Positions 31,118 through 60,341 of a DNA stretch of 64,000 nt are shown piece after piece; positions within the stretch are counted from its first letter, which is position 1; each line of letters opens with the position of its first letter. The position numbers and the translations under genes were made by a program. The stretch is from an uncultured bacterium (GTDB lineage Bacteria; Patescibacteriota; Minisyncoccia; Phycocordibacterales; GWA1-40-21), in contig CAWJAN010000001.1 of assembly GCA_963840885.1 (NCBI GenBank), positions 115,051 through 179,050 of the forward strand, written 5' to 3'. The notes beneath the pieces were generated by a model. It was not told the DNA's origin. It made no database searches and worked only from the letters and a program-made list of their open reading frames with translations.

Positions 31118-34100
31118 TTATTGGCTGGAGCTTGTAGCTTCTGTACTCGTGCTGTCTGTAGTGCCGGTTGTCGTCGCCTGTTCCGTTTGAACCGGTTCGG
31201 TAACATCCACTTCTCTCGTTGCTTTTGCATTATTACCTGCAGCATCTGTTGCGGAATACGTTATCGCATATGTTCCCGCTGTGCTCGTATCTACAGTTCC
31301 GGAAGTTGTAACGGAAACGTTTCCGTCGACATCATCTGTCGCTGTCGCGCCGGCATCCGCATATGTGTCGCCCACGGTAAGGTTTACAGGATTTGAACCG
31401 TTCAGTGTTATGACCGGAGCCGTGGTGTCGGCTGGCGCTGGCGGAGTGGTTGTAGCTTCCGTATCGGTAGTCGTCGATGTCGTATCTGTTGTTGAGGCTG
31501 TATCGTCAGCCGAAGTCGTATCCGTGCTCGTTGAAGTGGTGTCGGTGCTTGTCGATGTTGTATCGGTCGAAGTTGATGTCGTGGATGATGAAGTTTCCGA
31601 GGTATCGGACGACTGATCGCTTCCCTGTCCCATTGCCGGAGACGGCGATGAAGGAATTATGGACATAAAATCTTTTGCGCCTTTCACAGCAAATGCCGTC
31701 CAGCTGAACTCGATATCTTCGGGCGCAGGATTATTTATCATTATCGTGAATCCATTCGTTGATTTATCGGCCACCAAATATTTGATCTCATTGTTGAATA
31801 TTGCGACAGAAACGGCGGCAGCATCAACTGAGCTGTCAAGAGAAATCGTGGCGTTCACTACAGGATCGACAAGATACGGCTTGTCGAATGTCACATCCAC
31901 GCTGGTAGCGCCTTTATATATGGTGGCAAATCCTGCTGTATCGGAATTGAAGTAAGGAGTGCCGAAGAAAATGGTATCCGAATTGAACGAAATTGCGTCA
32001 CTCAAAGAATTTACATGGTCTATCGTCAAGCCGTTTGCCGTTATCTGCGGCGTTATTATTTCCACTCCGGCGGCAAGCCTGCCGGTGAACAGTTCCGAGG
32101 AATTTTCTGCCGTTGATGTTCCGTTGAGAAGCTTGTCCAAAACTTGTTTTGCAAAATCGTCAGGATATATTCCATTGTCTATGTTTATTCCGGCAAATTC
32201 GCTTATGCTCTGTCCATTGTAATATCCTTGTTCAACATAAACCATTACCGTTGTCGATGTCGACGACGGAGACCATGAGCCGAGGGCTTTACCTATTACG
32301 AATCCCGCTCCGGTCGCTTTCATCGCTTTTCCAGGATCGTTTGAAGTCGTAAGATAATCTCCGGGATTTATTTCTTCCGAACTAGAGGAAATTTTTACAG
32401 GAACGCGTCCGTTAAGGGCTATCGGCATAGGATTGTCTTCCTTCTTTATATTATATCCGGCTGATGTGAAATTGCCGTGGTTGTCGGAAACTATTCCTAC
32501 AGTATTTTTCTGGTAAGGGCTGTTTGATTTTACGAGCTCTGTGATCTGGCCGAGAACATTATTGTAGTCTACAGACGTATCGGTTGCTGTGCCGTATGTG
32601 TTTACCAATTGCGAGCCGGTAACGACTATGTCGCCGTATTCGGTTCCTGTGGCGACCGGATAATTTTCAGCGTAGTCGGCGGATGGCGCTGAACTGCAAT
32701 CTCCGAGCGTATATATGCTGCCGGCCGAAGGAGATGTTCCTGTGGCCAATGTCGAACATACCGCCGTTGAAACGGTTGTAGTTGCAAGGCCGATGCTTAC
32801 TATTCCATTGCTGTTTACTGTAAATAATGACGTGTCGTTTTTCTTAAGATCTATGAAGTTTCCTGTAAACGATCCTCCGCCTTTTCCGAAATTCATCGTA
32901 AGCCCTTCTCCGGAGAATGCGGAGGTTTCCTGATAAAAGCTTGCCACTGACGTAGCTGTCGTCATGGTATTGGTGTAAAGCCTCAAGACATCTCCTTGCG
33001 TAGTTCCGTCATTTTCTGCATACAGCGCAGCAGGTAAAAGAACTCCTCCAGCATTTCCGGCAGTGATTGCCTGCAAGCCGAATGTCGCGCCGGTGGTTCT
33101 GATGCCGGTATTCACGCCGGAAGTGTTTGAACCTGCGTTCGAGACTATTTCCATTCCGCGCGTAGTATTTGCAAGAGTGGTGTTATCAACCATTCTCATG
33201 ATTTCTCCTACGACCGTATTTGCATTCGTGGTCGGCTGAACATTTACAACGAAACGGTTACCGACTTGAACGCCTCCGGCAGTAGGATTTACATTATAAT
33301 TTCCATTGATACCGGCGATGGCATTTGTAGCGCCGTCAGCCGAAACCGAACCGTCTATCAAAAGTTTCGCCAGAGAAAAAGATGTCGTTGTACCTATCAT
33401 CGCCTGGCCGCTTTGCGATATTGTGAAAAGATTTGCGCCTGTAGATGAGGAAACTGCGAACGGATTAATACCTGATGCTCCTTGTACCAAGAAACTTGAT
33501 GTTGAAGTCGTGGCGTTCACGCCAGCAACTGTTCCGTTATCGAAAAGGACGCCGGAACTTAGAGTTGAAGTGGATGTCCAGCGCGCCACCTTTCCATTAG
33601 TGCCTCCTGAAAGAATTGGTGAGGTTGTTGAAATAACATTTCCGCTTCCATCAACTGCAAGGAATGAGCCGACAAGTCCGTTGCCGAGTTTAAGATTTGA
33701 GATTGTTGTTGTTGCAAGTGTCGTCGTTCCGTTAATGGTAACTGAACCTGTGAATGTTGCTCCTGTAAGAGCTGCGAAGGTCGATGAAGCGTAAGTATAT
33801 GTCGGATAATTCGCGATTGTCGCATACGTTGATGTTCCATATGCGTATGTGGAGAATGTTGAAGATGCGTATGTGTATGTCGGATAATTCGTAAGGGTGC
33901 TAACGGTATTTGTTATGTATCCAGACGGATTAGATGCGAAATAATATGTGGAAGAAGCATAGCCAAATGATGGGAAGGTCGAGGATGCATACGTATATGT
34001 AGGAGTGTTTGCAAGAAGCGCATATGTGGAAGTTCCATAAGCATAAGTGACAAATGTTGATGATGCGTAAGTGAATGATGGGAAAGTTGAGGATGCGTAT

Positions 34101-37100
34101 GTATTCGTAACATATCCGGACAAAAGATTTGCAGTCGAAGTTGCAATGACATTTCCCAAAGAATCAGCCGCGAGAAGAGTTGAAGCTATTCCGTTTCCTA
34201 GAGAAAGCTGGCTGATGCTTGTTGTAGCGAGATTAGAACTTCCTAAAACGCTTAATATGGATGAAAGATTAGCTGATCCTGAAATGGTTGTTGTGGAAAA
34301 AGTAGAAGTGCCGGAAACAGTAAGCTGATTTGAACCAAGATTTACATTGGAGCTTGCTCCCGTATAGGGAACATAATTGGCAAGCGCAGCAGAAGTTGCA
34401 TATGTTGATGAGCCGTAAGCATATGTCACGAAAGTTGATGAAGCGTAAGTGAATGTCGGATATGTGGCTGTGGCGTTTGCGATTGTCAGGTATGTGGAAG
34501 CGGCGGAAGTGGTGGAAAGGTATCCTCCGAGTGTTGTTGCCAATGTTCCCGTGGAGACGTAATTGATGGCAGCCTGAAGCTGGGAAAGATATGTCGAAGA
34601 TCCGTAAGTGAATGTCGGATATGTGGCTGTGGCGTTTGCGATTGTCAGGTATGTGGAAGCGGCGGAAGTGGTGGAAAGATACGGTGCGAGAGCGGAAGCC
34701 GTGATGAATCCTGAAGTAGAGTTGTCAGCGGTGGAAAGGTCTTGTCCGGAGATGTTTGAGATGTATCCAGACGGATTCGAAGCAAGGTAGAAGTCGGATG
34801 ATGAAGCGCTTGGAATATACGGAAGCGATGTCGAAGCGGAAAGAGGAAGGTATGTTGCTGCTGCAGATGTTGTTGAAAGGTATCCTCCGAGTGTTGTTGC
34901 CAATGTTCCCGTGGAGACGTAATCGATGGCAGCCTGAAGCTGGGAAAGATATGTCGAAGATCCGTAAGTGAATGTCGGATATGTGGCTGTGGCGTTTGCG
35001 ATTGTCAGGTATGTGGAAGCGGCGGAAGTGGTGGAAAGATACGGTGCGAGAGCGGAAGCCGTGATGAATCCTGAAGTAGAGTTGTCAGCGGTGGAAAGGT
35101 CTTGTCCGGAGATGTTTGAGATGTATCCAGACGGATTCGAAGCAAGGTAGAAGTCGGATGATGAAGCGCTTGGAATATACGGAAGCGATGTCGAAGCGGA
35201 AAGAGGAAGGTATGTTGCTGCTGCAGATGTTGTTGAAAGGTATCCTCCGAGTGTTGTTGCCAATGTTCCCGTGGAGACGTAATCGATGGCAGCCTGAAGC
35301 TGGGAAAGATATGTCGAAGATCCGTAAGTGAATGTCGGATATGTGGCTGTGGCGTTTGCGATTGTCAGGTATGTGGAAGCTGCGGAAGTGGTGGAAAGAT
35401 ACGGTGCGAGAGCGGAAGCCGTGATGAATCCTGAAGTAGAGTTGTCAGCGGTGGAAAGGTCTTGTCCGGAGATGTTTGAGATGTATCCAGACGGATTCGA
35501 AGCAAGGTAGAAGTCGGATGATGAAGCGCTTGGAATATACGGAAGCGATGTCGAAGCGGAAAGAGGAAGGTATGTTGCTGCTGCAGATGTTGTTGAAAGG
35601 TATCCTCCGAGTGTTGTTGCCAATGTTCCCGTGGAGACGTAATCGATGGCAGCCTGAAGCTGGGAAAGATATGTCGAAGATCCGTAAGTGAATGTCGGAT
35701 ATGTGGCTGTGGCGTTTGCGATTGTCAGGTATGTGGAAGCTGCGGAAGTGGTGGAAAGATACGGTGCGAGAGCGGAAGCCGTGATGAATCCTGAAGTAGA
35801 GTTGTCAGCGGTGGAAAGGTCTTGTCCGGAGATGTTTGAGATGTATCCAGACGGATTCGAAGCAAGGTAGAAGTCGGATGATGAAGCGCTTGGAATATAC
35901 GGAAGCGATGTCGAAGCGGAAAGAGGAAGGTATGTTGCTGCTGCAGATGTTGTTGAAAGGTATCCTCCGAGTGTTGTTGCCAATGTTCCCGTGGAGACGT
36001 AATTGATGGCAGCCTGAAGCTGGGAAAGATATGTCGAAGATCCGTAAGTGAATGTCGGATATGTGGCTGTGGCGTTTGCGATTGTCAGGTATGTTGCTGC
36101 TGCAGATGTTGTTGAAAGGTATCCTCCGAGAGAAGAGATGGTTGCGAATGTCGTCGAAGCGTAAGTGAATGTCGGATATGTGGCTGTGGCGTTTGCGATT
36201 GTCAGGTATGTGGAAGCGGCGGAAGTGGTGGAAAGGTATCCTCCGAGAGAAGAGATGGTTGCGAATGTCGTCGAAGCGTAAGTGAATGTCGGATATGTGG
36301 CTGTGGCGTTTGCGATTGTCAGGTATGTGGAAGCGGCGGAAGTGGTGGAAAGTTTTGCATCAAGTGCGGCTTGCAAATCGGTTTGATCAGAAAGTAAACC
36401 GGTGATGGCTCCCCATGCGACGGTTGCTGACCCGCTTGAAGCAAAAGCCCAGGCATATCCGTTTGGTGCAGTGCTTGATGCCTGAAGAAATTGTCCGGCT
36501 GTTCCCGTTGCGATAGATGTAAGTCCTGAAGAAGAATTGAATATTGCGATTTGTCCTGCTGTTCCCGTCCCCGTTATCGGATTCGTAAGCGTAGTCTGAT
36601 ATGTCGAAGATCCGTAATCATATGTGACAAAAGTTGATGATGCGTATGTATATGGAACATATGTCGAAGCTGCCGTTGCCGAAGTAAGATACGGTGCGAG
36701 AGCTGATGAATCAATGTATCCAGACGGATTCGAAGCAAGGTAGAAGTCGGATGATGAAGCGCTTGGAATATACGGAAGCGATGTCGAAGCGGAAAGAGGA
36801 AGGTATGTTGCTGCTGCAGATGTTGTTGAAAGGTATCCTCCGAGAGAAGAGATGGTTGCGAATGTCGTCGAAGCGTAAGTGAATGTCGGATATGTGGCTG
36901 TGGCGTTTGCGATTGTCAGGTATGTGGAAGCTGCGGAAGTGGTGGAAAGATACGGTGCGAGAGCGGAAGCCGTGATGAATCCTGAAGTAGAGTTGTCAGC
37001 GGTGGAAAGGTCTTGTCCGGAGATGTTTGAGATGTATCCAGACGGATTCGAAGCAAGGTAGAAGTCGGATGATGAAGCGCTTGGAATATACGGAAGCGAT

Positions 37101-40100
37101 GTCGAAGCGGAAAGAGGAAGGTATGTTGCTGCTGCAGATGTTGTTGAAAGGTATCCTCCGAGTGTTGTTGCCAATGTTCCCGTGGAGACGTAATCGATGG
37201 CAGCCTGAAGCTGGGAAAGATATGTCGAAGATCCGTAAGTGAATGTCGGATATGTGGCTGTGGCGTTTGCGATTGTCAGGTATGTGGAAGCTGCAGATGT
37301 TGTTGAAAGGTATCCTCCGAGAGAAGAGATGGTTGCGAATGTCGTCGAAGCGTAAGTGAATGTCGGATATGTGGCTGTGGCGTTTGCGATTGTCAGGTAT
37401 GTGGAAGCGGCGGAAGTGGTGGAAAGATACGGTGCGAGAGCGGAAGCCGTGATGAATCCTGAAGTAGAGTTGTCAGCGGTGGAAAGGTCTTGTCCGGAGA
37501 TGTTTGAGATGTATCCAGACGGATTCGAAGCAAGGTAGAAGTCGGATGATGAAGCGCTTGGAATATACGGAAGCGATGTCGAAGCGGAAAGAGGAAGGTA
37601 TGTTGCTGCTGCAGATGTTGTTGAAAGGTATCCTCCGAGTGTTGTTGCCAATGTTCCCGTGGAGACGTAATCGATGGCAGCCTGAAGCTGGGAAAGATAT
37701 GTCGAAGATCCGTAAGTGAATGTCGGATATGTGGCTGTGGCGTTTGCGATTGTCAGGTATGTTGCTGCTGCAGATGTTGTTGAAAGGTATCCTCCGAGAG
37801 AAGAGATGGTTGCGAATGTCGTCGAAGCGTAAGTGAATGTCGGATATGTGGCTGTGGCGTTTGCGATTGTCAGGTATGTGGAAGCGGCGGAAGTGGTGGA
37901 AAGTTTTGCATCAAGTGCGGCTTGCAAATCGGTTTGATCAGAAAGTAAACCGGTGATGGCTCCCCATGCGACGGTTGCTGACCCGCTTGAAGCAAAAGCC
38001 CAGGCATATCCGTTTGGTGCAGTGCTTGATGCCTGAAGAAATTGTCCGGCTGTTCCCGTTGCGATAGATGTAAGTCCTGAAGAAGAATTGAATATTGCGA
38101 TTTGTCCTGCTGTTCCCGTCCCCGTTATCGGATTCGTAAGCGTAGTCTGATATGTCGAAGATCCGTAATCATATGTGACAAAAGTTGATGATGCGTATGT
38201 ATATGGAACATATGTCGAAGCTGCCGTTGCTGAAGTAAGATACGGTGCGAGCGCTGATGAATCAATGTATCCAGACGGATTCGAAGCAAGGTAGAAGTCG
38301 GATGATGAAGCGCTTGGAATATACGGAAGCGATGTCGAAGCGGAAAGAGGAAGGTATGTTGCTGCTGCAGATGTTGTTGAAAGGTATCCTCCGAGTGTTG
38401 TTGCCAATGTTCCCGTGGAGACGTAATCGATGGCAGCCTGAAGCTGGGAAAGATATGTCGAAGATCCGTAAGTGAATGTCGGATATGTGGCTGTGGCGTT
38501 TGCGATTGTCAGGTATGTGGAAGCTGCAGATGTGGTTGAAAGGTATCCTCCGAGAGAAGAGATGGTTGCGAATGTCGTCGAAGCGTAAGTGAATGTCGGA
38601 TATGTGGCTGTGGCGTTTGCGATTGTCAGGTATGTGGAAGCTGCGGAAGTGGTGGAAAGATACGGTGCGAGAGCGGAAGCCGTGATGAATCCTGAAGTAG
38701 AGTTGTCAGCGGTGGAAAGGTCTTGTCCGGAGATGTTTGAGATGTATCCAGACGGATTCGAAGCAAGGTAGAAGTCGGATGATGAAGCGCTTGGAATATA
38801 CGGAAGCGATGTCGAAGCGGAAAGAGGAAGGTATGTTGCTGCTGCAGATGTTGTTGAAAGGTATCCTCCGAGTGTTGTTGCCAATGTTCCCGTGGAGACG
38901 TAATCGATGGCAGCCTGAAGCTGGGAAAGATATGTCGAAGATCCGTAAGTGAATGTCGGATATGTGGCTGTGGCGTTTGCGATTGTCAGGTATGTTGCTG
39001 CTGCAGATGTTGTTGAAAGGTATCCTCCGAGTGTTGTTGCCAATGTTCCCGTGGAGACGTAATCGATGGCAGCCTGAAGCTGGGAAAGATATGTCGAAGA
39101 TCCGTAAGTGAATGTCGGATATGTGGCTGTGGCGTTTGCGATTGTCAGGTATGTGGAAGCTGCGGAAGTGGTGGAAAGTTTTGCATCAAGTGCGGCTTGC
39201 AAATCGGTTTGATTGGAAAGCGTACCAGTGATTGCACCCCACACTCCGTTTCCTCCACTACTGCTTGCAAGCACCCAATCATATCCAGTAGGAGAAGTTG
39301 AAGATGCTCTCAAAAACATTCCGTCTGTGGAAGTGCCTATGCTCGACAATGTTCCAGTTGCTGTCCAGTAAGAAAGTTGTCCTGCGACTCCGCTGCCGGA
39401 AATTTTATTATTAAAATTTGTCCAATCTGATGATGAAAGATATCCGTCATTTGTCGATGAGGCAATACCAAGCTTTGTTCTTATTGATGAAGAAGATTCA
39501 TCTCCGGTATTTATTCCTGTTGAAGTTCCTGTAAAATTTGAAGCGGAAATATTTCCGGAAAAGTTTGCGTCCGCGGCGCTTAAAAGTCCATTGCTGTCTA
39601 TGGAAAAAATATTTGTTCCTGTCGAATCTTGAATTTGAAAAATATTTGCAACCTGTCCCAGAAAAGCCCTGACGGTAAGCGCGGTGGAATCCGTGGATGT
39701 AGAAAGTATACTCACCACGGAATTATCTATTGGGGTTGTAGTTCCGAAAGATGATTGCCCTGCTCCGCTTACGGCTCCAGCCACCTGAGAAAATGCTGCG
39801 GAAGTTATTTTTTGTCTTGGGCTAAGAGTTTGGAATGTAACATTGTCGGAAGAAACTTCAATCTGCAGATATATGGAATTATTCGTATTGAAATTGTAAT
39901 CCAAAATATCAGGGTAGCCGGCTACAGTATCTCCGATATTTACATTAAAAACTCCCTGGCGGACTTGCGAAGAAAAAGATGTTGGCGCCGATGCTGGCCA
40001 GAGTTTTGTGCCAGAACCGACGGTAGAATTATCCCAAATTGAAAATTTAAAATAATAATTTGTTCCGGTTCCTCCCAAAAGATTTCCGCTTGAATCCGCA

Positions 40101-40231
40101 AGCCTGCCTTGATAAGAAAGGATGGTAGGAACTCCATTTTGTGCAAAAACAAAATTTTCGCTTAATAACGGAGAAAAAGCGAAACAGAGGACAAACAATA
40201 AAATTAGTGATTTTTTATAGGTTTTTACCAT
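31118..40231 (-). CDS. giant repeat-rich secreted protein (about 3038 aa from the signal-peptide ATG) with fiber-like Tyr/Ser/Thr repeats and a C-terminal Ig-like (DUF5011-type) domain
   Basis: One uninterrupted 9.1-kb ORF. The signal peptide MVKTYKKSLILLFVLCFAFSPLLS starts at the ATG at 40229-40231. The central region of about 4.8 kb consists of near-identical tandem repeats with unit LSTTSAA(S/A)TYLTIANATATYPTFTY(G/A)SSTYLSQLQAAIDYVSTGTLATTLGGY. The C-terminus has a TSTSTDTT S/T linker. It ends in a segment PVITLNGSNPVNLTVGDTYADAGATATDDVDGNVSV...GTYAITYSATDAAGN, typical of bacterial Ig-like surface domains. Confidence 0.75.
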   Translation of the reverse strand: MVKTYKKSLILLFVLCFAFSPLLSENFVFAQNGVPTILSYQGRLADSSGNLLGGTGTNYYFKFSIWDNSTVGSGTKLWPASAPTSFSSQVRQGVFNVNIGDTVAGYPDILDYNFNTNNSIYLQIEVSSDNVTFQTLSPRQKITSAAFSQVAGAVSGAGQSSFGTTTPIDNSVVSILSTSTDSTALTVRAFLGQVANIFQIQDSTGTNIFSIDSNGLLSAADANFSGNISASNFTGTSTGINTGDESSSSIRTKLGIASSTNDGYLSSSDWTNFNNKISGSGVAGQLSYWTATGTLSSIGTSTDGMFLRASSTSPTGYDWVLASSSGGNGVWGAITGTLSNQTDLQAALDAKLSTTSAASTYLTIANATATYPTFTYGSSTYLSQLQAAIDYVSTGTLATTLGGYLSTTSAAATYLTIANATATYPTFTYGSSTYLSQLQAAIDYVSTGTLATTLGGYLSTTSAAATYLPLSASTSLPYIPSASSSDFYLASNPSGYISNISGQDLSTADNSTSGFITASALAPYLSTTSAASTYLTIANATATYPTFTYASTTFATISSLGGYLSTTSAASTYLTIANATATYPTFTYGSSTYLSQLQAAIDYVSTGTLATTLGGYLSTTSAAATYLPLSASTSLPYIPSASSSDFYLASNPSGYIDSSALAPYLTSATAASTYVPYTYASSTFVTYDYGSSTYQTTLTNPITGTGTAGQIAIFNSSSGLTSIATGTAGQFLQASSTAPNGYAWAFASSGSATVAWGAITGLLSDQTDLQAALDAKLSTTSAASTYLTIANATATYPTFTYASTTFATISSLGGYLSTTSAAATYLTIANATATYPTFTYGSSTYLSQLQAAIDYVSTGTLATTLGGYLSTTSAAATYLPLSASTSLPYIPSASSSDFYLASNPSGYISNISGQDLSTADNSTSGFITASALAPYLSTTSAASTYLTIANATATYPTFTYASTTFATISSLGGYLSTTSAASTYLTIANATATYPTFTYGSSTYLSQLQAAIDYVSTGTLATTLGGYLSTTSAAATYLPLSASTSLPYIPSASSSDFYLASNPSGYISNISGQDLSTADNSTSGFITASALAPYLSTTSAASTYLTIANATATYPTFTYASTTFATISSLGGYLSTTSAAATYLPLSASTSLPYIPSASSSDFYLASNPSGYIDSSALAPYLTSATAASTYVPYTYASSTFVTYDYGSSTYQTTLTNPITGTGTAGQIAIFNSSSGLTSIATGTAGQFLQASSTAPNGYAWAFASSGSATVAWGAITGLLSDQTDLQAALDAKLSTTSAASTYLTIANATATYPTFTYASTTFATISSLGGYLSTTSAASTYLTIANATATYPTFTYASTTFATISSLGGYLSTTSAAATYLTIANATATYPTFTYGSSTYLSQLQAAINYVSTGTLATTLGGYLSTTSAAATYLPLSASTSLPYIPSASSSDFYLASNPSGYISNISGQDLSTADNSTSGFITASALAPYLSTTSAASTYLTIANATATYPTFTYGSSTYLSQLQAAIDYVSTGTLATTLGGYLSTTSAAATYLPLSASTSLPYIPSASSSDFYLASNPSGYISNISGQDLSTADNSTSGFITASALAPYLSTTSAASTYLTIANATATYPTFTYGSSTYLSQLQAAIDYVSTGTLATTLGGYLSTTSAAATYLPLSASTSLPYIPSASSSDFYLASNPSGYISNISGQDLSTADNSTSGFITASALAPYLSTTSAASTYLTIANATATYPTFTYGSSTYLSQLQAAIDYVSTGTLATTLGGYLSTTSAAATYLPLSASTSLPYIPSASSSDFYLASNPSGYISNISGQDLSTADNSTSGFITASALAPYLSTTSAASTYLTIANATATYPTFTYGSSTYLSQLQAAINYVSTGTLATTLGGYLSTTSAASTYLTIANATATYPTFTYASSTFVTYAYGSSTYATSAALANYVPYTGASSNVNLGSNQLTVSGTSTFSTTTISGSANLSSILSVLGSSNLATTSISQLSLGNGIASTLLAADSLGNVIATSTANLLSGYVTNTYASSTFPSFTYASSTFVTYAYGTSTYALLANTPTYTYASSTFPSFGYASSTYYFASNPSGYITNTVSTLTNYPTYTYASSTFSTYAYGTSTYATIANYPTYTYASSTFAALTGATFTGSVTINGTTTLATTTISNLKLGNGLVGSFLAVDGSGNVISTTSPILSGGTNGKVARWTSTSTLSSGVLFDNGTVAGVNATTSTSSFLVQGASGINPFAVSSSTGANLFTISQSGQAMIGTTTSFSLAKLLIDGSVSADGATNAIAGINGNYNVNPTAGGVQVGNRFVVNVQPTTNANTVVGEIMRMVDNTTLANTTRGMEIVSNAGSNTSGVNTGIRTTGATFGLQAITAGNAGGVLLPAALYAENDGTTQGDVLRLYTNTMTTATSVASFYQETSAFSGEGLTMNFGKGGGSFTGNFIDLKKNDTSLFTVNSNGIVSIGLATTTVSTAVCSTLATGTSPSAGSIYTLGDCSSAPSADYAENYPVATGTEYGDIVVTGSQLVNTYGTATDTSVDYNNVLGQITELVKSNSPYQKNTVGIVSDNHGNFTSAGYNIKKEDNPMPIALNGRVPVKISSSSEEINPGDYLTTSNDPGKAMKATGAGFVIGKALGSWSPSSTSTTVMVYVEQGYYNGQSISEFAGINIDNGIYPDDFAKQVLDKLLNGTSTAENSSELFTGRLAAGVEIITPQITANGLTIDHVNSLSDAISFNSDTIFFGTPYFNSDTAGFATIYKGATSVDVTFDKPYLVDPVVNATISLDSSVDAAAVSVAIFNNEIKYLVADKSTNGFTIMINNPAPEDIEFSWTAFAVKGAKDFMSIIPSSPSPAMGQGSDQSSDTSETSSSTTSTSTDTTSTSTDTTSTSTDTTSADDTASTTDTTSTTTDTEATTTPPAPADTTAPVITLNGSNPVNLTVGDTYADAGATATDDVDGNVSVTTSGTVDTSTAGTYAITYSATDAAGNNAKATREVDVTEPVQTEQATTTGTTDSTSTEATSSSQ
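34400..39250. repeat. nested near-perfect tandem repeat array inside the giant gene (117-nt subunit, 360-nt unit, about 1.5-kb higher-order unit)
   Basis: Antisense ORFs at 34608, 34968, 35328 and 35688 are exactly 360 nt apart, and their translated proteins are identical. The 360-nt unit recurs at 34561, 34921, 35281, 35641 and 36001. A 117-nt subunit dominates 36060-36360. Blocks starting at about 36351 and 37902 are identical over several hundred bp (offset 1551 nt). A third divergent copy starts near 39177. Confidence 0.9.
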
Positions 40232-40363
40232 ACAAATAATGCCTGTACACTCAAATAAATGCCTTATTTGATCAACTGGCATTATTATAACACTGTATGC
40301 ATAGAATATACAAATATATGTTGATAAAAATACGTTTAAAAATATGGATATTTTATTCCATTG

Positions 40364-53310: not shown

Positions 53311-53429
53311 ATATTATTTTTCTTTTTAAATTTGCTTCGCGATATTATCTGCCAGAACAGCTAACCGCCCAAAATATAAAATTACCTAAAAGATACTAGC
53401 ATAAAAAATTCAAAAGACAATTTTTGAAT

Positions 53430-54184: not shown

Positions 54185-54988
54185 TTATCGTTTATTCCCG
54201 CCTCCCCACATTCTCCTTCCCATCCTCATATGGTCGACTCCCTTCGCTTCCTCTTCCCTTATCACTTTTCCTGTAAGCGAAAGAAAAGCTTCTTCCAAGC
54301 TGTTTGTGCCGGTTTTTTGTTTTAATTCCGACGAAGAACCCATGGCGATGATTTTACCGTGGTCTATGACGGCTATCCTTTGCGCCACTTTGTCGGCTTC
54401 TTCCATATAATGAGTCGTAAAGAAAATCGTAGTTCCTTCCGTCCTATTGAGTTCTTTGAGGTATTCCCACATGTGATTTCTGGTCTGCGGATCAAGGCCG
54501 AGCGTAGGTTCATCCAGAAACATTACTTTTGGGTGATGCAAAAGCCCCCGTGCAATCTCCAATCTTCTTTTCATTCCTCCGGAAAAAGTTTTTACAAGAC
54601 TGTCCTTCCTGTCCCAAAGTTCCACAAAATTCATAAGCTTCTCTATTCTTTCTTTTATGGTCTTCCTATCCATGCCGTAAAGCACCCCGTGAAATTCCAT
54701 ATTTTCATATGCCGTAAGCTCATCATCAAGAGATGGATCCTGAAAAACTATTCCGAAAGAATGCCTTACGCCGTTTGGATCTTCCTGAACATTAAAACTG
54801 TTCAATGTTATGTGTCCGGATGTCGGAGAAAGCAATGTGGTGAGTATCTTTATAGTGGTGGATTTTCCGGCGCCATTCGGGCCCAAAAACGCAAATATCT
54901 CTCCTTTGGCTACGGAGAAAGAGATATTATCTACCGCGGTAAAATCTCCGAATTTCTTTGTTAGATTTTCAACTTTGATTATGCTCAT
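54185..54988 (-). CDS. ABC transporter ATP-binding protein
   Basis: Walker A GPNGAGKST, signature LSGGMKRRLEIA, and Walker B VMFLDEPT are present. Confidence 0.9.
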   Translation of the reverse strand: MSIIKVENLTKKFGDFTAVDNISFSVAKGEIFAFLGPNGAGKSTTIKILTTLLSPTSGHITLNSFNVQEDPNGVRHSFGIVFQDPSLDDELTAYENMEFHGVLYGMDRKTIKERIEKLMNFVELWDRKDSLVKTFSGGMKRRLEIARGLLHHPKVMFLDEPTLGLDPQTRNHMWEYLKELNRTEGTTIFFTTHYMEEADKVAQRIAVIDHGKIIAMGSSSELKQKTGTNSLEEAFLSLTGKVIREEEAKGVDHMRMGRRMWGGGNKR

Positions 54989-55037
54989 TATTGTTTAGTA
55001 CGTTCCATTCTTAAAACAGATGCTTATATCTTATCAT

Positions 55038-55065
55038 AAAAACTGCGGAGAGGGGGAGATTCGAA
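55038..55065. repeat. 28-nt direct repeat of the 3' end plus trailer of tRNA-Ser (att-like scar)
   Basis: aaaaactgcggagagggggagattcgaa occurs at 55038-55065 and again at 55195-55222, where it forms the last ~20 nt of tRNA-Ser plus its trailer. The 129-bp spacer contains a degenerate T-arm-like motif (ggtttcgaatctcgc) and a nested inverted repeat. Confidence 0.7.
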
Positions 55066-55202
55066 GCTTACAGCTTCAGTACCCTCATTGGATATTTTAC
55101 TTCATTGTATTCGTAAAATATACACAATGAGGTTTCGAATCTCGCACGGAAGCGCCCCGCGCTTCCTCCTCTCGAAGTTTTTACACTGCGTTTAAAAAAC
55201 TG

Positions 55203-55289
55203 CGGAGAGGGGGAGATTCGAACTCCCGAGACCCTTTCGAGCCTACCGCTTTTCGAGAGCGGCGCTTTCAACCACTCAGCCACCTCTCC
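55203..55289 (-). tRNA. tRNA-Ser(CGA)
   Basis: GGAGAGG-T-GGCTGAGTGGTTGAAAGC-GCCGCT-CTCGAAA-AGCGGT-long variable arm-GGGAG-TTCGAAT-CTCCC-CCTCTCC-G. Confidence 0.8.
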
Positions 55290-55365
55290 AGTGTTAAGTG
55301 AACCGAAAAACATTAGCATTTTTTTGCCTTTTTTACAAAAAGTTGTTATATTATCTCGGCTGTTT

Positions 55366-55440
55366 GGCCCTATCGTCTAACGGTTAGGACACGGCCTTTT
55401 CAAGGCTGTAATCGGGGTTCGATTCCCCGTAGGGTCACCA
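55366..55440 (+). tRNA. tRNA-Glu(UUC), CCA encoded
   Basis: GGCCCTA..GTCTAACGGTTAGGAC-A-CGGCC-TTTTCAA-GGCTG..CGGGG-TTCGATT-CCCCG-TAGGGTC-A-CCA. Confidence 0.85.
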
Positions 55441-55473
55441 CTAGTATTTAAATACCAGTATTAAAATAAGACT

Positions 55474-56079
55474 ATGGATTTCAAAGTAAAATGTGAAAAT
55501 TGTGGAAAGATAACTCCACACACCCAAAGAGGTGAAGCTGTACAAAATGATGAGATAGATTGGGGGGAAGATGAACCAGCCCAAGAAATACATTGGAACA
55601 ATCTTTTATTACAATGCGACCTATGTGAAAGTGTTTCTTTGCACTATTTTTCTCCAGAAGTACGCGAGGAGTTAACTCAACAGTTTCCCATTATAAAAAA
55701 TTTAAATGGTGTACCTGCTAATGTGGCGAAATCTTATTCGGAAGCAAAAAAGGTAAAAAATATCTCGTCTTTAGCTTTTTCAACGTTAATAAGAAGAGCT
55801 TTAGAATCTGTATGTATAGACCAAAAGGCTGTAGGGAAAGATTTAAATAAAAAACTAGAAGATCTGGGTAAAAAAGGAATTATTCCTCAAACTCTATCAA
55901 AAATGTCTCATGCGATAAGATATTTTGGAAATATCGGCGCTCATGCTTCAGATATTGAAATTAGTGTTGAAGAAGTTCAAACCATGGATGATTTTTTTGT
56001 AGCAGTGCTAGAGTACGTATATATAGCTCCTCAGAAATTAAAAAGAGTAGAAGAACTTATGAAAAAGAAGAATAAATAG
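55474..56079 (+). CDS. zinc-ribbon plus DUF4145-like domain protein (defence-island-associated family)
   Basis: N-terminal CENCGK...CDLC zinc ribbon. The C-terminal helical domain has the DUF4145-type motif IRYFGNIGAHASD. It starts 34 nt after tRNA-Glu. Confidence 0.5.
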   Translation: MDFKVKCENCGKITPHTQRGEAVQNDEIDWGEDEPAQEIHWNNLLLQCDLCESVSLHYFSPEVREELTQQFPIIKNLNGVPANVAKSYSEAKKVKNISSLAFSTLIRRALESVCIDQKAVGKDLNKKLEDLGKKGIIPQTLSKMSHAIRYFGNIGAHASDIEISVEEVQTMDDFFVAVLEYVYIAPQKLKRVEELMKKKNK

Positions 56080-56106
56080 TTTTATAGATTACTTACAAAT
56101 ATTTTA

Positions 56107-56871
56107 ATGAGTAACAAAAATGAACAGATTACAGAAGATCAACATTATGTTCCCCAATTTTATCTAAGGCAGTGGCTGGATGAAACCGGCGGTTTCTATC
56201 CTGTAAAGATTGAAGAAAAACAACCTCCAAAATTAAAAATCTTTTCTGATAAATCAGATCAGAGTAGGTTTTGTTACGAAAACTTCTTCTATGCCCAACA
56301 CACAGGAGTTGAAGATGAAATAAGTCAAATTATTGAAAAGGAATTTGCAAAGATTGAAACAATATTTTCTCAAGAATTACCAGTTCTTGAGAAGAAGATT
56401 TTGAATTATGAGCATATTAACAATGGTGTTGTAGGAGATACCGGATAATCTGGATAGATCCTCTTGATACAGACCTTTCTCTTTCCTATACCTCCGTATT
56501 GCCTCACCTATATGGTTTTCATTGTTCATAGGATGAATTGTAGTTAGTTAATAAAAAAATGGTAAGACTGTGAAATGTATCCATTTGGACATGTTTTGTG
56601 GATAACTTTATTAGCTTTAAGAACAAATACTATGATTAGTCTTGAACAATTGAGAGAAGTTGAGCCTGCATTAAAAGATATGTTTGATAAAGAGGTAGAG
56701 CGTATTCGGGATCTCCTCTATGCCCAAGCCAAGATGGCCCTTGAATGCTTCCTGGAAGAGAAAACTGGTACTAAACAAGAGGTGCATGTTCCTGATTTTA
56801 GTTTTGACTCAAGAGAACGGGATGCACTCAAACGCTGTCAGGAGATTATGGATCTGAAAAAGAAAAAATAG
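56107..56871 (+). pseudogene. disrupted DUF4238-like gene (N-terminal fragment 56107-56448, possible C-terminal fragment 56575-56871)
   Basis: The N-terminal fragment starts with the DUF4238 hallmark HYVPQFYLRQW, but the ORF ends after 113 aa. A second 98-aa ORF follows in another frame after a 126-nt gap. Together they would make a protein of about 250 aa. Confidence 0.35.
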
Positions 56872-56889
56872 TGCTGTTGAGCGGATTTT

Positions 56890-57470
56890 GACTTTATTTT
56901 CCTATCCTATACAATTGGATTAACACCACAATTTTTTTCCTCTGCATTTGGGCATAATGCAAACACTGTAGATTTAGGTGTTCGGGAAAAGTGGTGCTGG
57001 ACCTAGCCCAAGTGGAGCCAACCATAAAAAAGCTAGCCGACTAAGCGTGTAGTCTAGACTCTAAGCTTATAGGCGAAATAAAATAGGAGTCACTTACTGG
57101 TGCCAATGCAGTTAAAAGGGGCTAGCCTCGTTAGCGATTTGGGAGACGATTTCCGGCTTTCTCTGAGGCGAAAAAAACAGGAAACAGTATAGTCCGTTGC
57201 TTTAGCCTTTGTGCTCGTACAAACAAAGGTAGCGGGGTTTTAACCTTTGTGTACCCGACTAAACGACAAAGGGAAGGGATTTTCTCTCTCTTGTATCCAG
57301 CGAACCAAACAAGTGAGAAAAAAGTTTATCTCTTGTACTGAACAAGGATAGCCAAAGAAGCGGCTCACGGCTTTAGGGCGAAACAGACAGTGGCTTCGGT
57401 TATTGCGTATAAGCTGAGCGCAATACATGATGAGCAAAACCCAGTTCTCGAGAACTGGGTTTATTTATTC
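56890..57470 (+). ncRNA. candidate large structured ncRNA (about 580 nt) of unknown class, ending in an intrinsic terminator
   Basis: No ORF of 60 aa or more on either strand across about 850 bp. Local GC is higher than the flanking island. Repeated stem motifs are present (cctttgt..acaaagg twice, gctagcc box twice). It ends in the perfect terminator aaacccagttc-tcga-gaactgggttt-ATTTATT at 57437-57470. Confidence 0.35.
57436..57470 (+). terminator. rho-independent terminator closing the candidate ncRNA
   Basis: 11-bp perfect stem, tcga tetraloop, T-rich tail. Confidence 0.8.
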
Positions 57471-57891
57471 CCCGAAACAGATATCTACTTTTTCTTTCTG
57501 CATGAAATTCTGGAAACTACGGAGATGTATTATAATGGCGTTCCAATTCTGGATAACGAGGGTCACCAACGTTGATATTGTGTGTAAAAATTCAATAATA
57601 CCTTGCAACTAAGCCACCCTTAAGGGGTTCCAAATCCAATTTTTCAAAAAGAGATTATTTAATTCTCTTAGTGATTAAAGGATACCCCTTCGGGGATTGG
57701 AACCGATAGCTAACTAAGGAGGATTGGAACTACTATTTTTTGATGTTAAACATCAGACCTTCTTTTTCAGAAAAAGGTTGCAAGATCGCAGTATTCAACT
57801 CCCTGTTCTTTACATAACGGAGGTATTTTTGGCTTGTTTTGATTGCAATCTGGTATCTCATATGTAACAAGAATACATTTGTGGATATATG

Positions 57892-59046
57892 CTACCGCAA
57901 CCGCAAATGTGTCGGCGCTATAAACTTTTGGATCTTTATACTCAGAAATTTGAGGGTATTTATAGACCATGTTCTCTGAGTTTCAAGATAATCTCTATAA
58001 AGGCCAATTAAATTTAATCTGAAAATATCATCGTTTTCTGGTTTAAATCTTGAAATTATGGATTCAAAAACATCATAAAGAAAAATACCTGTTTTCTCAC
58101 GTAATTTTTTGCTTTTATCCTTCGTTCTCACACCCCAACTGTAATTCCAACCAATACTAGACAAAGCTTTTAAAAGTAAATTACGATTCTCTTGTTCAAA
58201 TTCACTCTCAAAAAACCTTTTTATATTCTCAAAAAATGCAAAAATAAGATCATCATTATAATCAAGTTTTTTCTCATAACCCTCCTGGTTGTGAGCCATG
58301 TTCGCTCTGTGAATAAGTTCAAAATAATGACCGGCAAGTTTAATAAATGAAATTTTTCCATCAATACCAAGACCATTAAAACTGATTTCCTCAAATAGAA
58401 AATGAGAATGGTCAATTTCAGGATGCTTAACAAAAAGTTCGTCTAGATAAAATGACGAATTTGGATATATATGTTCATCTAGATAACCATTAAGGAATGA
58501 TTTCTGATTGTTCAAAGACAAGACAAAAAGATTGTTTGTGAATTGATTGATATGACGTAGTTTTTCCAAGGGAGTAGTTTTTATTTTTTTGAAGCCAAAT
58601 TCTAAAGTTTTTTCAAAAAGAAAAGCATGCTCAGAAAATAATGTTAATAATAAATTACTTCTGAAATAAGTAATAAAAACGGTCCTGGCATCATTATTTT
58701 CCAAAGAAAACTCTAAAAGAGAATCGTAAAAATAAACTATGTCGCCAAGATATTTCAGTACATCTTCCCCGTTTTTTTGTGTAAGTAATTTATTCAAATC
58801 TATAATAAAAAGTTTGATGTTGTACTTATTAAATTTTTTGAATGGTATAAATACAACAGAAGCATAAATAGTTATAGAACCTAACATGAAAATTCCACCC
58901 GTTATTTGGAGAAGAAATGGCTGAAAAATTTGAGTAAATTCAGCTAATAGAGTTGCTAGGACACTTGCTATACAAAAATAAATTGCAATAGAAACTGATA
59001 TTTTTCTAAGTTTAAATCGTAAACCAAGTCGCGTATCAAGCGACAA
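57892..59046 (-). CDS. AT-rich membrane protein (two N-terminal TM helices plus cytoplasmic domain), unknown; likely horizontally acquired
   Basis: 384-aa ORF with markedly lower GC than the rest of the window. N-terminal TM pair. No recognisable catalytic motif. A 67-aa ORF at 57767-57970 overlaps its 3' end in another frame. Confidence 0.5.
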   Translation of the reverse strand: MSLDTRLGLRFKLRKISVSIAIYFCIASVLATLLAEFTQIFQPFLLQITGGIFMLGSITIYASVVFIPFKKFNKYNIKLFIIDLNKLLTQKNGEDVLKYLGDIVYFYDSLLEFSLENNDARTVFITYFRSNLLLTLFSEHAFLFEKTLEFGFKKIKTTPLEKLRHINQFTNNLFVLSLNNQKSFLNGYLDEHIYPNSSFYLDELFVKHPEIDHSHFLFEEISFNGLGIDGKISFIKLAGHYFELIHRANMAHNQEGYEKKLDYNDDLIFAFFENIKRFFESEFEQENRNLLLKALSSIGWNYSWGVRTKDKSKKLREKTGIFLYDVFESIISRFKPENDDIFRLNLIGLYRDYLETQRTWSINTLKFLSIKIQKFIAPTHLRLR

Positions 59047-59099
59047 ACCGATAAGGGAAACTAAAATGGAGATTGCAGTTATAGCGACACCTAAATTAA

Positions 59100-59640
59100 A
59101 AGAAGAGACCGTTTCTTGTATTATTTTAATGCCCTAATTCAAAATCTTTTAATAATTCAAGATATTTGGCTTTTATATGTCGCTCTACCCAATTATCTGA
59201 AAGCTGACTTATTTCGCCGTTACTGCTGACAATTGAACTGCATGGCGCAAAATAAGAATCCCGAGTTGGTGTTGCGATAGAATAACCATGAAGGATCCGC
59301 ATGTTTTCATGAGTCTGTTCTAGACAATTTCCTTTATTTCCTTCGGATGCAAACTTGATGCTATATTTTACCTCTACAGATAGAAAACGTTCAACTTTCC
59401 ATCAGTTTTCTTTATCAATAAGAATGAAGTCGGGGGCATTTCTGAATATTGATTTAACGACTTTTTTAACTTCTACCGAAGTTTTGATATTGGGCTAACT
59501 CAGGAAGTGTGTATTCATAAGCAAAACGAAGTATGGTAAATTTCCCAACATCTCTGAACATAAGTGCGAAGATTAGTTCAGCGACTTTCCCTTTGATAAG
59601 GTCATGCGAAAATTTTTCAGTAGATTCCATTTATTTAGTA
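59100..59640 (-). pseudogene. frameshifted PD-(D/E)xK-type nuclease-like gene
   Basis: The minus strand reads MESTEKFSHDLIKGKVAELIFALMFRDVGKFTILRFAYEYTLPELAQ.., then a stop, and then in other frames ..PDFILIDKEN.. and WKVERFLSVEVKYSIKFASEGNKGN.... The D..E.K spacing (PDFILID...VEVKY) fits a restriction-endonuclease-like core. At least two frame breaks are present. Confidence 0.4.
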
Positions 59641-59674
59641 ATTTAAAGTCCAATAGCTTTAATTTTCTCGTCAA

Positions 59675-60341
59675 TTATAGCTGAACCTTTTGATTCCCGA
59701 GGAAATGAACCATCCTTATTGAAAAGGAAATTTCATGAGATGGGTGATTAACTTTCTTTGGAAATAGGGATGTAATTTTTTCAATATCAGTAAATGGTGC
59801 CACTTCTAACTTTTCTCCTGCAACTGCTGAAGTATGGCGACCAGAGGAGAGTGACCCCGTATTTGGGTTTTCCTCTATAAGTTTTCCCATTTCCGTGGCA
59901 GCTAACTGCCAATAGGTAGTAAGGGCTATTTCGTGTTCAGTGATAGACCCTTCATGAAATTTTTCGAGATGTTCTAATAACTCTTTCGTAGCATTCCAGA
60001 GAGAATCGTATTTCATTGATCCATCAGAGCTGAATCAATTCGTTGTCGATTCGACTCTACCATGAGAAAAAACATAACCTTTAACGAAAGGAATTCCATT
60101 TTTTACATCTAATTCAAATACTTGGATCCAACTGTCATCGATTTTTCCAAATAGGTGAGGATAATCGTTTAAACATTTTGCTTTCTGAGTTTCTCAGTGC
60201 TCGCGATTCAGCAGATGCAAACTCGTCTACGTGTAGCAATTGCGTTCTTTCTCGTCGTCTTTCTGACGATAAATACGATACGACCGTACCCACTTCAAGC
60301 GTATGCATGCGCCACAACAAAGGACTATAAGTGTTGTCCAA
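59675..60341 (-). pseudogene. fragments of a second decayed gene (ORFs 59675-60016 and 60135-60341)
   Basis: Contiguous minus-strand ORF fragments are separated by stops and frameshifts. No family recognised. Confidence 0.3.

Follow-up and report, generated by a model that had tools for sequence, protein, structure and literature searches.

A second tRNA-Ser end in a CPR bacterium may be the arm of a structured, putatively mobile element of a family located behind tRNA genes

We analysed a stretch of 64,000 nucleotides from an uncultured CPR bacterium (the window), in which the 3' end of a tRNA-Ser gene is present twice. With about an even chance of being right, we propose that the second tRNA-Ser end forms the 3' arm of a structured, intact element of ~145 nt, which belongs to a family of CPR tRNA-flank elements and is a putative non-autonomous mobile element acting as DNA. 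The element is probably small, non-autonomous and structured, specific to the 3' flanks of tRNA genes, and active as DNA. Read on the tRNA strand, it starts with an inverted copy of the tRNA gene's final ~20 nt, inside which a hairpin (A) is found, continues with a three-way junction composed of hairpin B, the motif GTACYG and hairpin C with its UGUAA loop, and ends with a direct copy of the same ~20 nt followed by a few nt of the local trailer. Pairing of the two arms gives a forked hairpin, the stem of which reproduces as a duplex the neighbouring tRNA gene from the T-loop to the 3' end.

The repeat search of the window detected an exact 28-nt direct repeat, AAAAACTGCGGAGAGGGGGAGATTCGAA on the + strand, at 55038-55065 and 55195-55222, with 157 nt from start to start and a spacer of 129 nt. 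This confirms the duplication of the tRNA-Ser 3' end 157 bp downstream reported in the initial annotation: no match was obtained in 100 shuffles, the chance expectation is 0, and no third copy was found in the window even when 3 mismatches were allowed. On the tRNA strand, the repeat reads TTCGAATCTCCCCCTCTCCG and then CAGTTTTT, that is, 20 nt from T-loop position 54 to the discriminator G73, plus 8 nt of trailer. It is therefore derived from the tRNA, as annotated, and begins in the T-loop, as does the identity block of integrative elements that target tRNA genes. The Rfam tRNA model scored 60.7 bits at 55203-55289. The distal copy lies downstream of the tRNA-Ser gene, in the same orientation, and ends 49 nt ahead of the start codon (ATG, 54988) of an ABC-transporter ATPase gene, whose protein is also present in the metagenome sample ERR12036782. 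The features are given below along the tRNA strand.

55202-55289, minus strand: tRNA-Ser(CGA), complete and canonical, CCA not encoded (ARAGORN, 55289->55202; Rfam tRNA)
55195-55222, minus strand: proximal copy X of the repeat, tRNA positions 54-73 and trailer CAGTTTTT (repeat search)
55176-55201, minus strand: post-tRNA hairpin, AGTTTTT-(12 nt loop)-AAAAACT (folds)
55038-55182, minus strand: whole element, a 145-nt forked hairpin (RNA and ssDNA folds, covariance model)
55168-55182, minus strand: outer part of the inverted arm, AAAAACT-T-CGAGAGG (complement of the trailer and the acceptor 3' strand)
55148-55166, minus strand: hairpin A, GGAAGCGC-GGG-GCGCTTCC, interrupting the inverted arm and followed by a conserved GU (fold; homologue in locus L134)
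55134-55145, minus strand: inner part of the inverted arm, GCGAGATTCGAA (sequence comparison with the tRNA end)
55083-55132, minus strand: hairpin B, long and AT-rich, variable at the tip, conserved and covarying at the base (folds, covariation)
55077-55082, minus strand: conserved junction GTACTG, GTACYG in the family (invariant alignment columns, regex scan)
55064-55076, minus strand: hairpin C, AAGCT-GTA-AGCTT, with an invariant U-GUA-A loop (regex scan, alignment, covariation)
55038-55065, minus strand: distal repeat copy X (28 nt), forming the element's 3' arm (paired to the inverted arm in the folds)
54185-54988, minus strand: ABC-2 type transporter ATPase gene, 49 nt past the element, context only (Pfam; relatives)

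Hairpin C and the distal repeat overlap by 2 nt, the end of the one being the start of the other. On the + strand, the inverted copy of the tRNA end and trailer reads TTCGAATCTC (55134-55143) and TCCTCTCGAAGTTTTT (55167-55182), the two parts being split by the GC hairpin at 55148-55166, and its inner part is the reverse complement, with 1 mismatch, of the T-loop and T-stem 3' strand (TTCGAATCTCCC). The degenerate T-arm-like motif and nested inverted repeats previously noticed in the spacer are thus real, and are more specifically an inverted tRNA-end copy divided by a hairpin. At other loci, an intrinsic terminator is found where the window has the post-tRNA hairpin. This hairpin was compared with the trailers of loci L114 and L121, and the L114 trailer, CAGTTTTGAAACGCAGTGTAGAAACTG, is homologous to it.

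Acceptor-like and T-stem-like strands are present in the spacer in the order of a tRNA, which could suggest a decayed tandem duplicate of tRNA-Ser (a pseudo-tRNA) or a non-canonical or intron-containing second tRNA. We find such an origin hardly credible and reject it. ARAGORN detected only tRNA-Ser (55202-55289) and tRNA-Glu in the region, and the Rfam tRNA model had no match in 55038-55194 at E <= 10, so that no functional second tRNA was found in the spacer. The tRNA 3' end recurs in the 5' arm as its reverse complement, T-loop (AATCGAA for TTCGATT) and positions of G.U pairs included, and a GC hairpin of only 19 nt, with no copied 5' half of a tRNA, separates the acceptor-like from the T-like strand. 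Moreover, the same core is found behind unrelated tRNAs.

Homologous elements were indeed located 3' of ~16 of 118 tRNA genes (about 14%) in related CPR sequences, behind tRNAs of the isotypes Ser, Val, Glu, Gln, Lys, Pro, Arg and Ile. For the census, the last 14 nt of each of 118 non-redundant tRNA genes were looked for over 300 nt. Thirteen genes repeated their own end downstream, and an inverted copy was also present for 8 of those 13 and for 3 other tRNA genes. The upstream control gave one direct copy, due to a paralogous tRNA, and no inverted copy. A covariance model (R1) run over 1.71 Mb returned 9 matches at E < 0.01, all of them on the same strand as a tRNA and less than 300 nt beyond its 3' end: three behind tRNA-Ser, two behind tRNA-Glu, one each behind tRNA-Arg, tRNA-Ile and tRNA-Val, and the L134 element, which has Val arms. 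The match in the window covers 55054-55147 with 99.4 bits. Across the family, elements are 95-180 nt long. Three subfamilies could be seen: the window type, a 'GAAAGACGGA...GAGTCGGGGTCG' type and a 'CAGCGGAAT...' Val type.

The helices of these elements covary. Alignment cells were paired in 93.2% of cases compared with 67.6% in shuffles, none of 500 shuffles reaching as high a value, and both sides had changed in 17/22 pairs. Hairpin A was 100% paired across 7 elements, with both sides changed in 8/8 pairs (its pairs and the acceptor pairs were counted by a Python script), the base of hairpin B (helix 2) was likewise 100% paired with both sides changed in 8/8 pairs, and hairpin C (helix 3) was 100% paired with both sides changed in 4/5. 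For example, the hairpin A homologue of L134, GAAAGCGCt-GGG-aGCGCTTTC, shows a compensatory change relative to that of the window. The hairpin C loop U-GUA-A, the motif GTACYG and the GU following hairpin A are invariant in the family alignment.

We then compared the arms with the core. One core is found behind tRNAs of differing isotype, each time with arms that match the tRNA at that locus. The window element, with Ser arms, and the L134 element, with Val arms, have homologous hairpins A, B and C, while hairpin C of L114 (Glu) is like that of the window. The cores of L103 (Glu) and L101 (Arg) are 81% identical and their tRNAs 64%. Between the Val elements of L099 and L131, identity reaches 97% in the core compared with 81% in tRNA-Val, 75-86% in the arms and 56% in the spacer. 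In L114, the acc5 segment GACCCCA is the reverse complement of TGGGGTC, whereas the 5' strand of the tRNA is GGCCCTA; since acc5 differs from the tRNA 5' strand, the arm is an inverted copy of the 3' end. The same inverted-copy pattern was observed in L103. The repeat reaches 0-32 nt into the locus-specific trailer (8 nt in the window, 32 nt in L100) and, because this trailer is included, the copy must have been templated locally rather than brought by an attP.

These results bear directly on the initial annotation, in which the duplication was taken for an att-site-like scar left by an excised or deleted integrase-borne element. According to this explanation, the two copies would represent attL and attR, and the integrative element, targeted to the tRNA, would have been internally deleted or imprecisely excised, leaving the two attP arms between the copies. 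Elements of this kind, such as those with P4-like tyrosine integrases, have a direct repeat from the tRNA T-loop to the 3' end, lie in tRNA clusters with variable neighbour genes and can form tandem arrays; the identity block of T-loop-type tRNA integrases runs from the T-loop past the 3' end, as does the repeat in the window, and the neighbourhood is a variable islet. In addition, locus L122 carries an array of a 198-aa ART-PolyVal ORF and two small elements, each bounded by the 3' end of tRNA-Ser(UGA). Contrarily to an att scar, however, the spacer holds an intact member of a conserved and covarying family, to which the inverted tRNA-end copy belongs. Independent deletions would not produce a conserved 95-180-nt unit with covarying helices behind 8 isotypes, with a locus-specific trailer in the repeat and arms that change with the tRNA while the core is constant. 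Only 129 nt separate the copies, no integrase was found in the window or beside any copy, and neither the repeat nor the core motifs matched a viral contig in three scans (0 matches), and a phage attP was also rejected on this ground. Pfam detected no integrase, transposase or reverse transcriptase among the 40 ORFs of the window, nor any Phage_integrase or recombinase match, and a crude integrase motif scan of the loci gave a single archaeal recombinase near no element. We therefore consider the scar very unlikely and largely refuted by the family data. In the explanation that we favour, the 28-nt repeat belongs to the design of the element instead of marking where an island with an integrase has been lost.

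Related genomes differ in the presence of an element at a given tRNA and in its subfamily. The tRNA-Ser of the relative L001 is identical to that of the window and is directly followed by a terminator and the ABC gene. The comparison with relatives suggested in the initial annotation thus yielded the empty site; the relatives showed only empty sites or the same small element, and never a long insertion at this position. The form of the window without the element would be tRNA-Ser joined directly to ...CAGTTTTTATGATAAG. Similarly, tRNA-Val is identical in the window and in L131, where a decayed copy of the element follows the terminator; none follows in the window. From this sequence comparison, the unit seems to be located beyond the terminator of the tRNA itself and not inside the tRNA, unlike att repeats; the ancestral terminator, T1, was assigned from the similarity of A/T-rich flanks only.

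Such filled and empty sites recall MITEs and REPINs (RAYT), which are also small, non-coding, non-autonomous hairpins located in intergenic DNA just after terminators, with several subfamilies and presence differences among relatives. Dispersed copies with presence/absence polymorphism were indeed found (~16/118, filled versus empty at identical tRNAs). However, instead of constant terminal inverted repeats and a short TSD, the element has inverted arms whose sequence is taken from the tRNA beside it and differs among family members, and a short TSD was not observed; the location is strictly 3' of tRNA genes. A TSD model in which a staggered cut duplicates X and the terminator was also rejected: it fits L100, with its 55-nt repeat, but not loci with differing terminators. 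Insertion at a restriction-like T^CGA site was rejected as well, as it fits the Ser and Val members but not the Glu and Arg members.

We also wondered whether the element could be a structured non-coding RNA gene, that is, a tRNA-like 't-element' co-transcribed with the tRNA or read through from it, which we hold to be possible but doubtful. The arms would then be an acceptor/T-stem mimic identical to the neighbour tRNA, with hairpin A standing in for the D and anticodon arms and the three-way junction for the T-loop. RNase P and RNase Z could release the RNA, which might be bound by a tRNA-binding factor, or might serve as a decoy or as a signal for processing or termination. The topology is that of a tRNA (acc5 - insert - T5 - insert - T3 - acc3), and the plant mitochondrial t-elements and mascRNA share with it an acceptor- or T-stem mimic beside another gene and this tRNA strand topology. 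A conserved junction with covarying peripheral helices and the invariant nucleotides mentioned above are typical of functional RNAs, and the core is more conserved than the tRNA (97% vs 81%). Folding of the element gave z = -7.0 / -8.7 as RNA, and -36.2 / -37.9 kcal/mol with z = -8.2 / -9.3 as ssDNA for both strands. The tRNA (minus) strand folds better than its complement in 10/14 elements, and this, together with the invariant single-stranded junction nucleotides, fits RNA equally well as DNA. In the window, no terminator-scoring signal was found between tRNA-Ser and the element; because a strong terminator is absent there, this element is probably co-transcribed with tRNA-Ser. Its closing helix, followed by CAGUUUUU, resembles an intrinsic terminator ahead of the ABC gene.

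Against an RNA gene, a canonical terminator-like hairpin is located directly between tRNA and element at most loci, and no promoter was predicted ahead of the element. Unlike in t-elements and mascRNA, the T-loop is replaced by a three-way junction, and the helix runs past the acceptor end into trailer-complementary sequence, in which it differs from a substrate of RNase P/Z; the predicted structure seems partly compatible with cleavage by these enzymes. The arm is a perfect reverse complement of the local 3' strand and trailer even at G.U pairs of the tRNA, and identity to the trailer of the adjacent tRNA is not required by an RNA function. G.U pairs are not in excess over A.C, departures being about equal (9 G.T vs 6 A.C) and predicted G.U pairs 30 vs 30 on the two strands, although these counts do not single out one strand as the functional one. 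The distribution is patchy, with differing subfamilies at one tRNA in close relatives and with tandem arrays. Finally, Rfam cmscan of 54950-55480 at E <= 10 returned only the two tRNAs, tRNA-derived cross-hits and noise, without a match to a family. Known RNA families (ribozymes, introns, tmRNA, omega-RNA) were rejected accordingly, and the element family was absent from Rfam and from the literature searched (open-access papers, bioRxiv). By eye, a hammerhead-like motif was rejected, since GTACTG...CGAA is unlike CUGANGA...GAAA and the Glu and Arg members have no CUGA. A reverse-transcribed mature tRNA (PBS-like) was rejected because the inverted arm complements the genomic trailer and not CCA; TGG is seen in this arm only in L006, whose CCA is encoded in the gene. 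A group I intron at a new tRNA site was rejected too, as the sole paper found on tRNA introns in Patescibacteria is unrelated and concerns an intron at position 35/36 (10.1101/2025.07.03.662931).

In the explanation that we favour, the element would be non-autonomous, selfish or mobile, and would work in the form of a folded DNA single strand, not as an RNA gene. Its conserved junction would be recognised by an enzyme encoded elsewhere in the genome. Local template switching or gene conversion would write the arms and maintain their identity with the adjacent tRNA gene, and the TCGA palindrome of the T-loop and the post-tRNA hairpin could be natural switch points. Conserved segments (hairpin A, core) alternate with the arm segments (acc5, T5, T3+acc3), and we know of no transposition mechanism that rewrites arms in such a pattern, which is why the template-switch or gene-conversion step is a conjecture. 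Neither an excised or circular form nor an autonomous, gene-bearing version was seen.

A specific mechanistic version of the DNA element would be a folded single-strand recombination site, like the integron attC or the CTX-phage attP(+), recombined with the end of the tRNA gene by an Xer-like or dedicated tyrosine recombinase to give cassette-like arrays behind tRNA genes. All of these sites are imperfect forked hairpins of ~60-150 nt with a stem mimicking the duplex partner, here a duplex copy of the target. Their terminal structure varies, and one strand carries an extrahelical feature, here a hairpin. The element likewise forms an imperfect hairpin that is stable as a single strand on either strand, the two folding about equally well. 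The order of an integrated CTX is X ... X' - loop - X, and the element follows it as X - short segment - X' - loop - X. The ORF-cassette array of L122 and the tandem units of L101, L110 and L134 point in the same direction. In contrast to attC and attP(+), however, the stem is the sequence of whichever tRNA adjoins, and the arms have no constant R/L-box-like sequence, no RYYYAAC/GTTRRRY and no dif-like motif. The segment from X to X' is poorly conserved (56% vs 97% for the core), although a circular element should keep it, no recombinase was found in the 64-kb window, and recombination inside X leaves the retargeting of the inverted arm unexplained. Altogether, we regard a folded recombination site as quite unlikely.

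A bolder possibility, unlikely in our view, is that these are programmable mobile elements directed to tRNA genes, made of a conserved ~90-nt scaffold (hairpin A and the three-way junction), a ~20-nt guide arm and a matching target-mimic arm, both arms being rewritten from the new target at each move. The IS110 bridge RNA, the EBS/IBS of group II introns and the TnpB omega-RNA also combine a scaffold with variable target-matching segments. Unlike in these systems, no recombinase, reverse transcriptase or nuclease gene is attached to the element, its ~20-nt target match is sequestered in cis by the target copy, and their Rfam models did not match it. If true, this would imply nucleic-acid-guided or structure-templated insertion without an attached recombinase gene, with recognition of the duplex end of any tRNA gene, and both the enzyme, encoded elsewhere, and the arm-copying chemistry would be new.

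If the DNA-element explanation is confirmed, CPR/Patescibacteria carry previously unnoticed small structured elements tied to tRNA genes, with a stem copied from the neighbour tRNA. Such partial tRNA duplications would then be neither prophage or island scars nor att sites for island-finding tools, and they may confuse tRNA annotation in metagenome-assembled genomes. Arms matching the local target across at least 8 isotypes call for an undescribed arm-rewriting mechanism, candidates being template switching, gene conversion and guided insertion. The elements would also offer a concrete way to study mobile DNA and the plasticity of genomes among organisms that are not culturable alone; if they are RNA, they would form a new tRNA-mimicking RNA family.

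Lastly, we looked at the neighbourhood of the Glu/Ser/Val tRNA cluster. In line with the hotspot proposed in the initial annotation, it is a variable region, with genes that differ among relatives at the same position (isochorismatase, CYTH/CDPS, Abi_C/HNH and HEPN genes). In the window, a PD-T7-4-like DUF4145 gene and a truncated DUF4238 gene are located beside tRNA-Glu.

The 28-nt sequence at the end of tRNA-Ser(CGA) is an exact direct repeat, as the initial annotation had proposed, with copies at 55038-55065 and 55195-55222; a repeat search confirmed this. No third copy was found in the window, even allowing 3 mismatches, and 100 shuffles gave 0 matches. In the orientation of the tRNA it is TTCGAATCTCCCCCTCTCCG followed by CAGTTTTT, running from position 54 in the T-loop through the discriminator and 8 nt into the trailer. 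The second copy lies downstream of tRNA-Ser and ends 49 nt ahead of the ATG of the ABC-2 ATPase gene (54988).

55289->55202, minus strand: tRNA-Ser(CGA), detected by ARAGORN; 60.7 bits with the Rfam tRNA model

A second tRNA in the spacer, which had been considered possible, or another known RNA was ruled out, since neither ARAGORN nor the Rfam tRNA model detected a tRNA there and no other Rfam family matched at E <= 10. The 129-nt spacer was found to be ordered, not random, with the following parts on the tRNA strand.

Part 1: short post-tRNA hairpin, AGTTTTT...AAAAACT
Part 2: CGAGAGG, complementary to the acceptor 3' strand
Part 3: hairpin A, GC-type, GGAAGCGC-GGG-GCGCTTCC, then GU
Part 4: GCGAGATTCGAA, which apart from 1 mismatch is the T-loop plus T-stem 3' strand in reverse complement
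Part 5: hairpin B, long and AT-rich
Part 6: GTACTG
Part 7: hairpin C, 5 bp with a GTA loop, then the 28-nt copy

The tRNA-Ser end thus occurs in three copies, two of them direct and, between these, an inverted one that hairpin A splits. Positions 55182 to 55038 (145 nt, hereafter the element) form a forked hairpin when folded (RNA, z = -7.0 and -8.7; single-stranded DNA, -36.2 / -37.9 kcal/mol, z = -8.2 / -9.3, the strands being similar), and the 3' end of tRNA-Ser itself is an equally good pairing partner for the inverted arm.

In a metagenome search that used the tRNA end as probe and in the syntenic loci (related CPR sequences, L numbers), the same arrangement was found repeatedly. Sufficient downstream sequence was available for 118 non-redundant tRNA genes; 13 of them had their own last 14 nt copied (<= 2 mismatches) within 300 nt downstream, and an inverted T-loop and T-stem copy lay in between in 8 of those 13 as well as behind 3 other tRNA genes. 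Upstream, the same probes gave one direct match, to a paralogous tRNA, and no inverted one. Elements were found behind tRNAs for Ser (CGA, GCU, UGA), Val, Glu, Gln, Lys, Pro, Arg, and Ile, with at least three core subfamilies, each behind different tRNAs. Tandem units were present in L101, L110, and L134. The array downstream of one tRNA-Ser(UGA) also included an ORF.

L122, about 5560-6720, minus strand: array 1-1160 nt downstream of tRNA-Ser(UGA), consisting of a small element, a 198-aa ART-PolyVal ORF, and a small element

In this array, a terminator-like hairpin lies ahead of every unit, and each unit closes with a copy of the tRNA-Ser(UGA) 3' end; at the start of the ORF unit is the T5-like GGGGAGATTGAAC.

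Conservation was studied in the window-type subfamily (n = 7: window, L118, and L104, Ser; L103 and L114, Glu; L101, Arg; L134, Val). Alignment with MAFFT (A5) showed 93.2% pairing in the T helix, hairpin B base, and hairpin C vs 67.6% in shuffles, with both-side changes in 17/22 pairs, and 0/500 shuffles reached any measure. Shifting the 3' partners by one column lowered pairing to about 52%. Hairpin A, aligned manually, was 100% paired with both-side changes in 8/8 pairs. The invariant single-stranded positions were A-TCGAA, GTAC-G, T-G-AA in the loop of hairpin C, and GA. A covariance model of the core gave 9 matches (E < 0.01) in 1.71 Mb, all on the same strand as a tRNA gene and <300 nt 3' of it, including a new element behind tRNA-Ile in L006.

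The arms, on the other hand, follow the local tRNA. Hairpins A, B, and C are homologous in the window and L134, with compensatory changes, while the arms are Ser in one and Val in the other. The cores of L103 (Glu) and L101 (Arg) are 81% identical vs 64% for their tRNAs; in the Val elements of L099 and L131, core identity is 97%, 2/3 differences being compensatory, vs 81% for the tRNA-Val genes, 75-86% for the arms, and 56% for the spacer. That the 5' arm is truly copied in inverted form is seen in L114, where GACCCCA is the reverse complement of TGGGGTC and not the tRNA 5' strand GGCCCTA; likewise, T-loops TTCGATT are matched by an arm AATCGAA. Since the direct copy runs 0-32 nt into the local, non-conserved trailer, its template is local. 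The inverted arm is complementary to trailer sequence instead of CCA, so its source is the gene rather than mature tRNA. Arm segments are interleaved with conserved ones; conjecturally, they could be rewritten by local template switching or gene conversion, with switches at the TCGA palindrome of the T-loop and at the post-tRNA hairpin.

We favour, without strong confidence, an element acting at the DNA level. Action as RNA would fit the tRNA topology, the conserved junction, the better fold on the tRNA strand in 10/14 elements and, in the window, the lack of a strong terminator between tRNA-Ser and the element. However, a terminator usually lies ahead of the element with no promoter predicted there, G.T and A.C departures are balanced (9 vs 6), as are predicted G.U pairs (30 vs 30), and both strands fold equally, so that RNA is the less favoured reading. 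The motif GAGCGAAGC / GCGAAGC recurs in elements of L011, L101, L103, L122, and L128; d(GCGAAGC) is known to form a DNA mini-hairpin of unusual stability, which may hint at biology involving single-stranded DNA.

By its neighbouring ABC protein and the order of its genes (TsaD ... tRNA-Glu / tRNA-Ser ... ABC ... tRNA-Val ... NUDIX, TrxR, FtsZ), the window is assigned to CPR/Patescibacteria. Comparison of the junction in relatives revealed an empty site: in L001, an identical tRNA-Ser is directly followed by a terminator, with the ABC gene 50 nt on. L002 and L133 carry an isochorismatase gene at this site, and L131/L132 a decayed remnant, GAGATTCGAA-CTTTTgtaAGAAGG-TATGATAAT. The tRNA-Val genes of the window and L131 are identical; in L131, a scanned terminator lies directly 3', followed by an element and a second terminator, and the window has a terminator only, with similar A/T-rich flanks. 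These flanks weakly suggest that insertion may occur after the tRNA's own terminator. In L134 (20-365), the ABC ATPase gene is immediately preceded by a tandem pair of elements that both have tRNA-Val arms and belong to different subfamilies. In the window, it is the tRNA-Ser element that precedes this gene, so gene order near the ABC operon differs between these relatives.

Pfam analysis of 40 window ORFs detected neither an integrase nor a transposase or reverse transcriptase; these ORFs include housekeeping genes (DprA, Topo I, RelA/SpoT, ParB, MiaA, MurJ, GyrA, FtsA/Z, and aminoacyl-tRNA synthetases), T4SS pilins, and surface proteins. Element sequences had 0 matches in viral contigs. The initial view of an excision or deletion remnant is not retained: the repeat forms the outer arm of an element that is intact, structured, and apparently mobile and non-autonomous, with specificity for tRNA-gene 3' flanks. 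Among the closest analogies, integron attC and CTX attP are folded single-strand recombination sites with constant recombinase boxes that the element lacks, and REPIN-/MITE-type hairpin repeats differ in having constant TIRs and a TSD. The tRNA-like t-elements, which are defined by demonstrated processing, are an analogy in topology. A limited search of Rfam and the literature gave no earlier description of such elements.

Several other features were seen around these tRNA genes and in the window.

55474-56448 and 56575-60016: variable region downstream of tRNA-Glu
53359-53370, minus strand: 12-nt copy of the start of tRNA-Val (GGGCGGTTAGCT), 49 nt upstream of tRNA-Val (53310->53237)
L001:9738-9830, and about 115 nt (L046) and 72 nt (L069) upstream of their tRNA-Gln / tRNA-Lys: mirror-image 5' units
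20868-40282, minus strand: three consecutive giant ORFs (2394, 998, 3054 aa)
13082-14397, minus strand: T4SS pilin (TrbC/VirB2-like) domains in three small ORFs arranged in tandem

Downstream of tRNA-Glu lies a 201-aa DUF4145 ORF that matches both a PHROG 'DNA binding protein' and PADLOC family PD-T7-4; next come a truncated DUF4238 ORF (113 aa vs a 281-position profile) and ORFs without family match, one of 384 aa. The same position holds Abi_C, HNH, HTH, CYTH, and CDPS in L131/L132 or HEPN in L133. The region adjoining the tRNA cluster is thus a small variable defence islet. The partial tRNA-Val copy is conserved, as a similar GGGCGATTATGCTGTTTTGGCAGATAA lies at the same place in L131/L132. 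The mirror-image units contain a direct copy of the tRNA's first 16-18 nt, hairpin(s), and an imperfect inverted copy, and suggest that both ends of CPR tRNA genes may be prone to direct and inverted local duplication. In L001, the first hairpin of this unit has a CTGC loop, as in hairpin A of the 3' elements.
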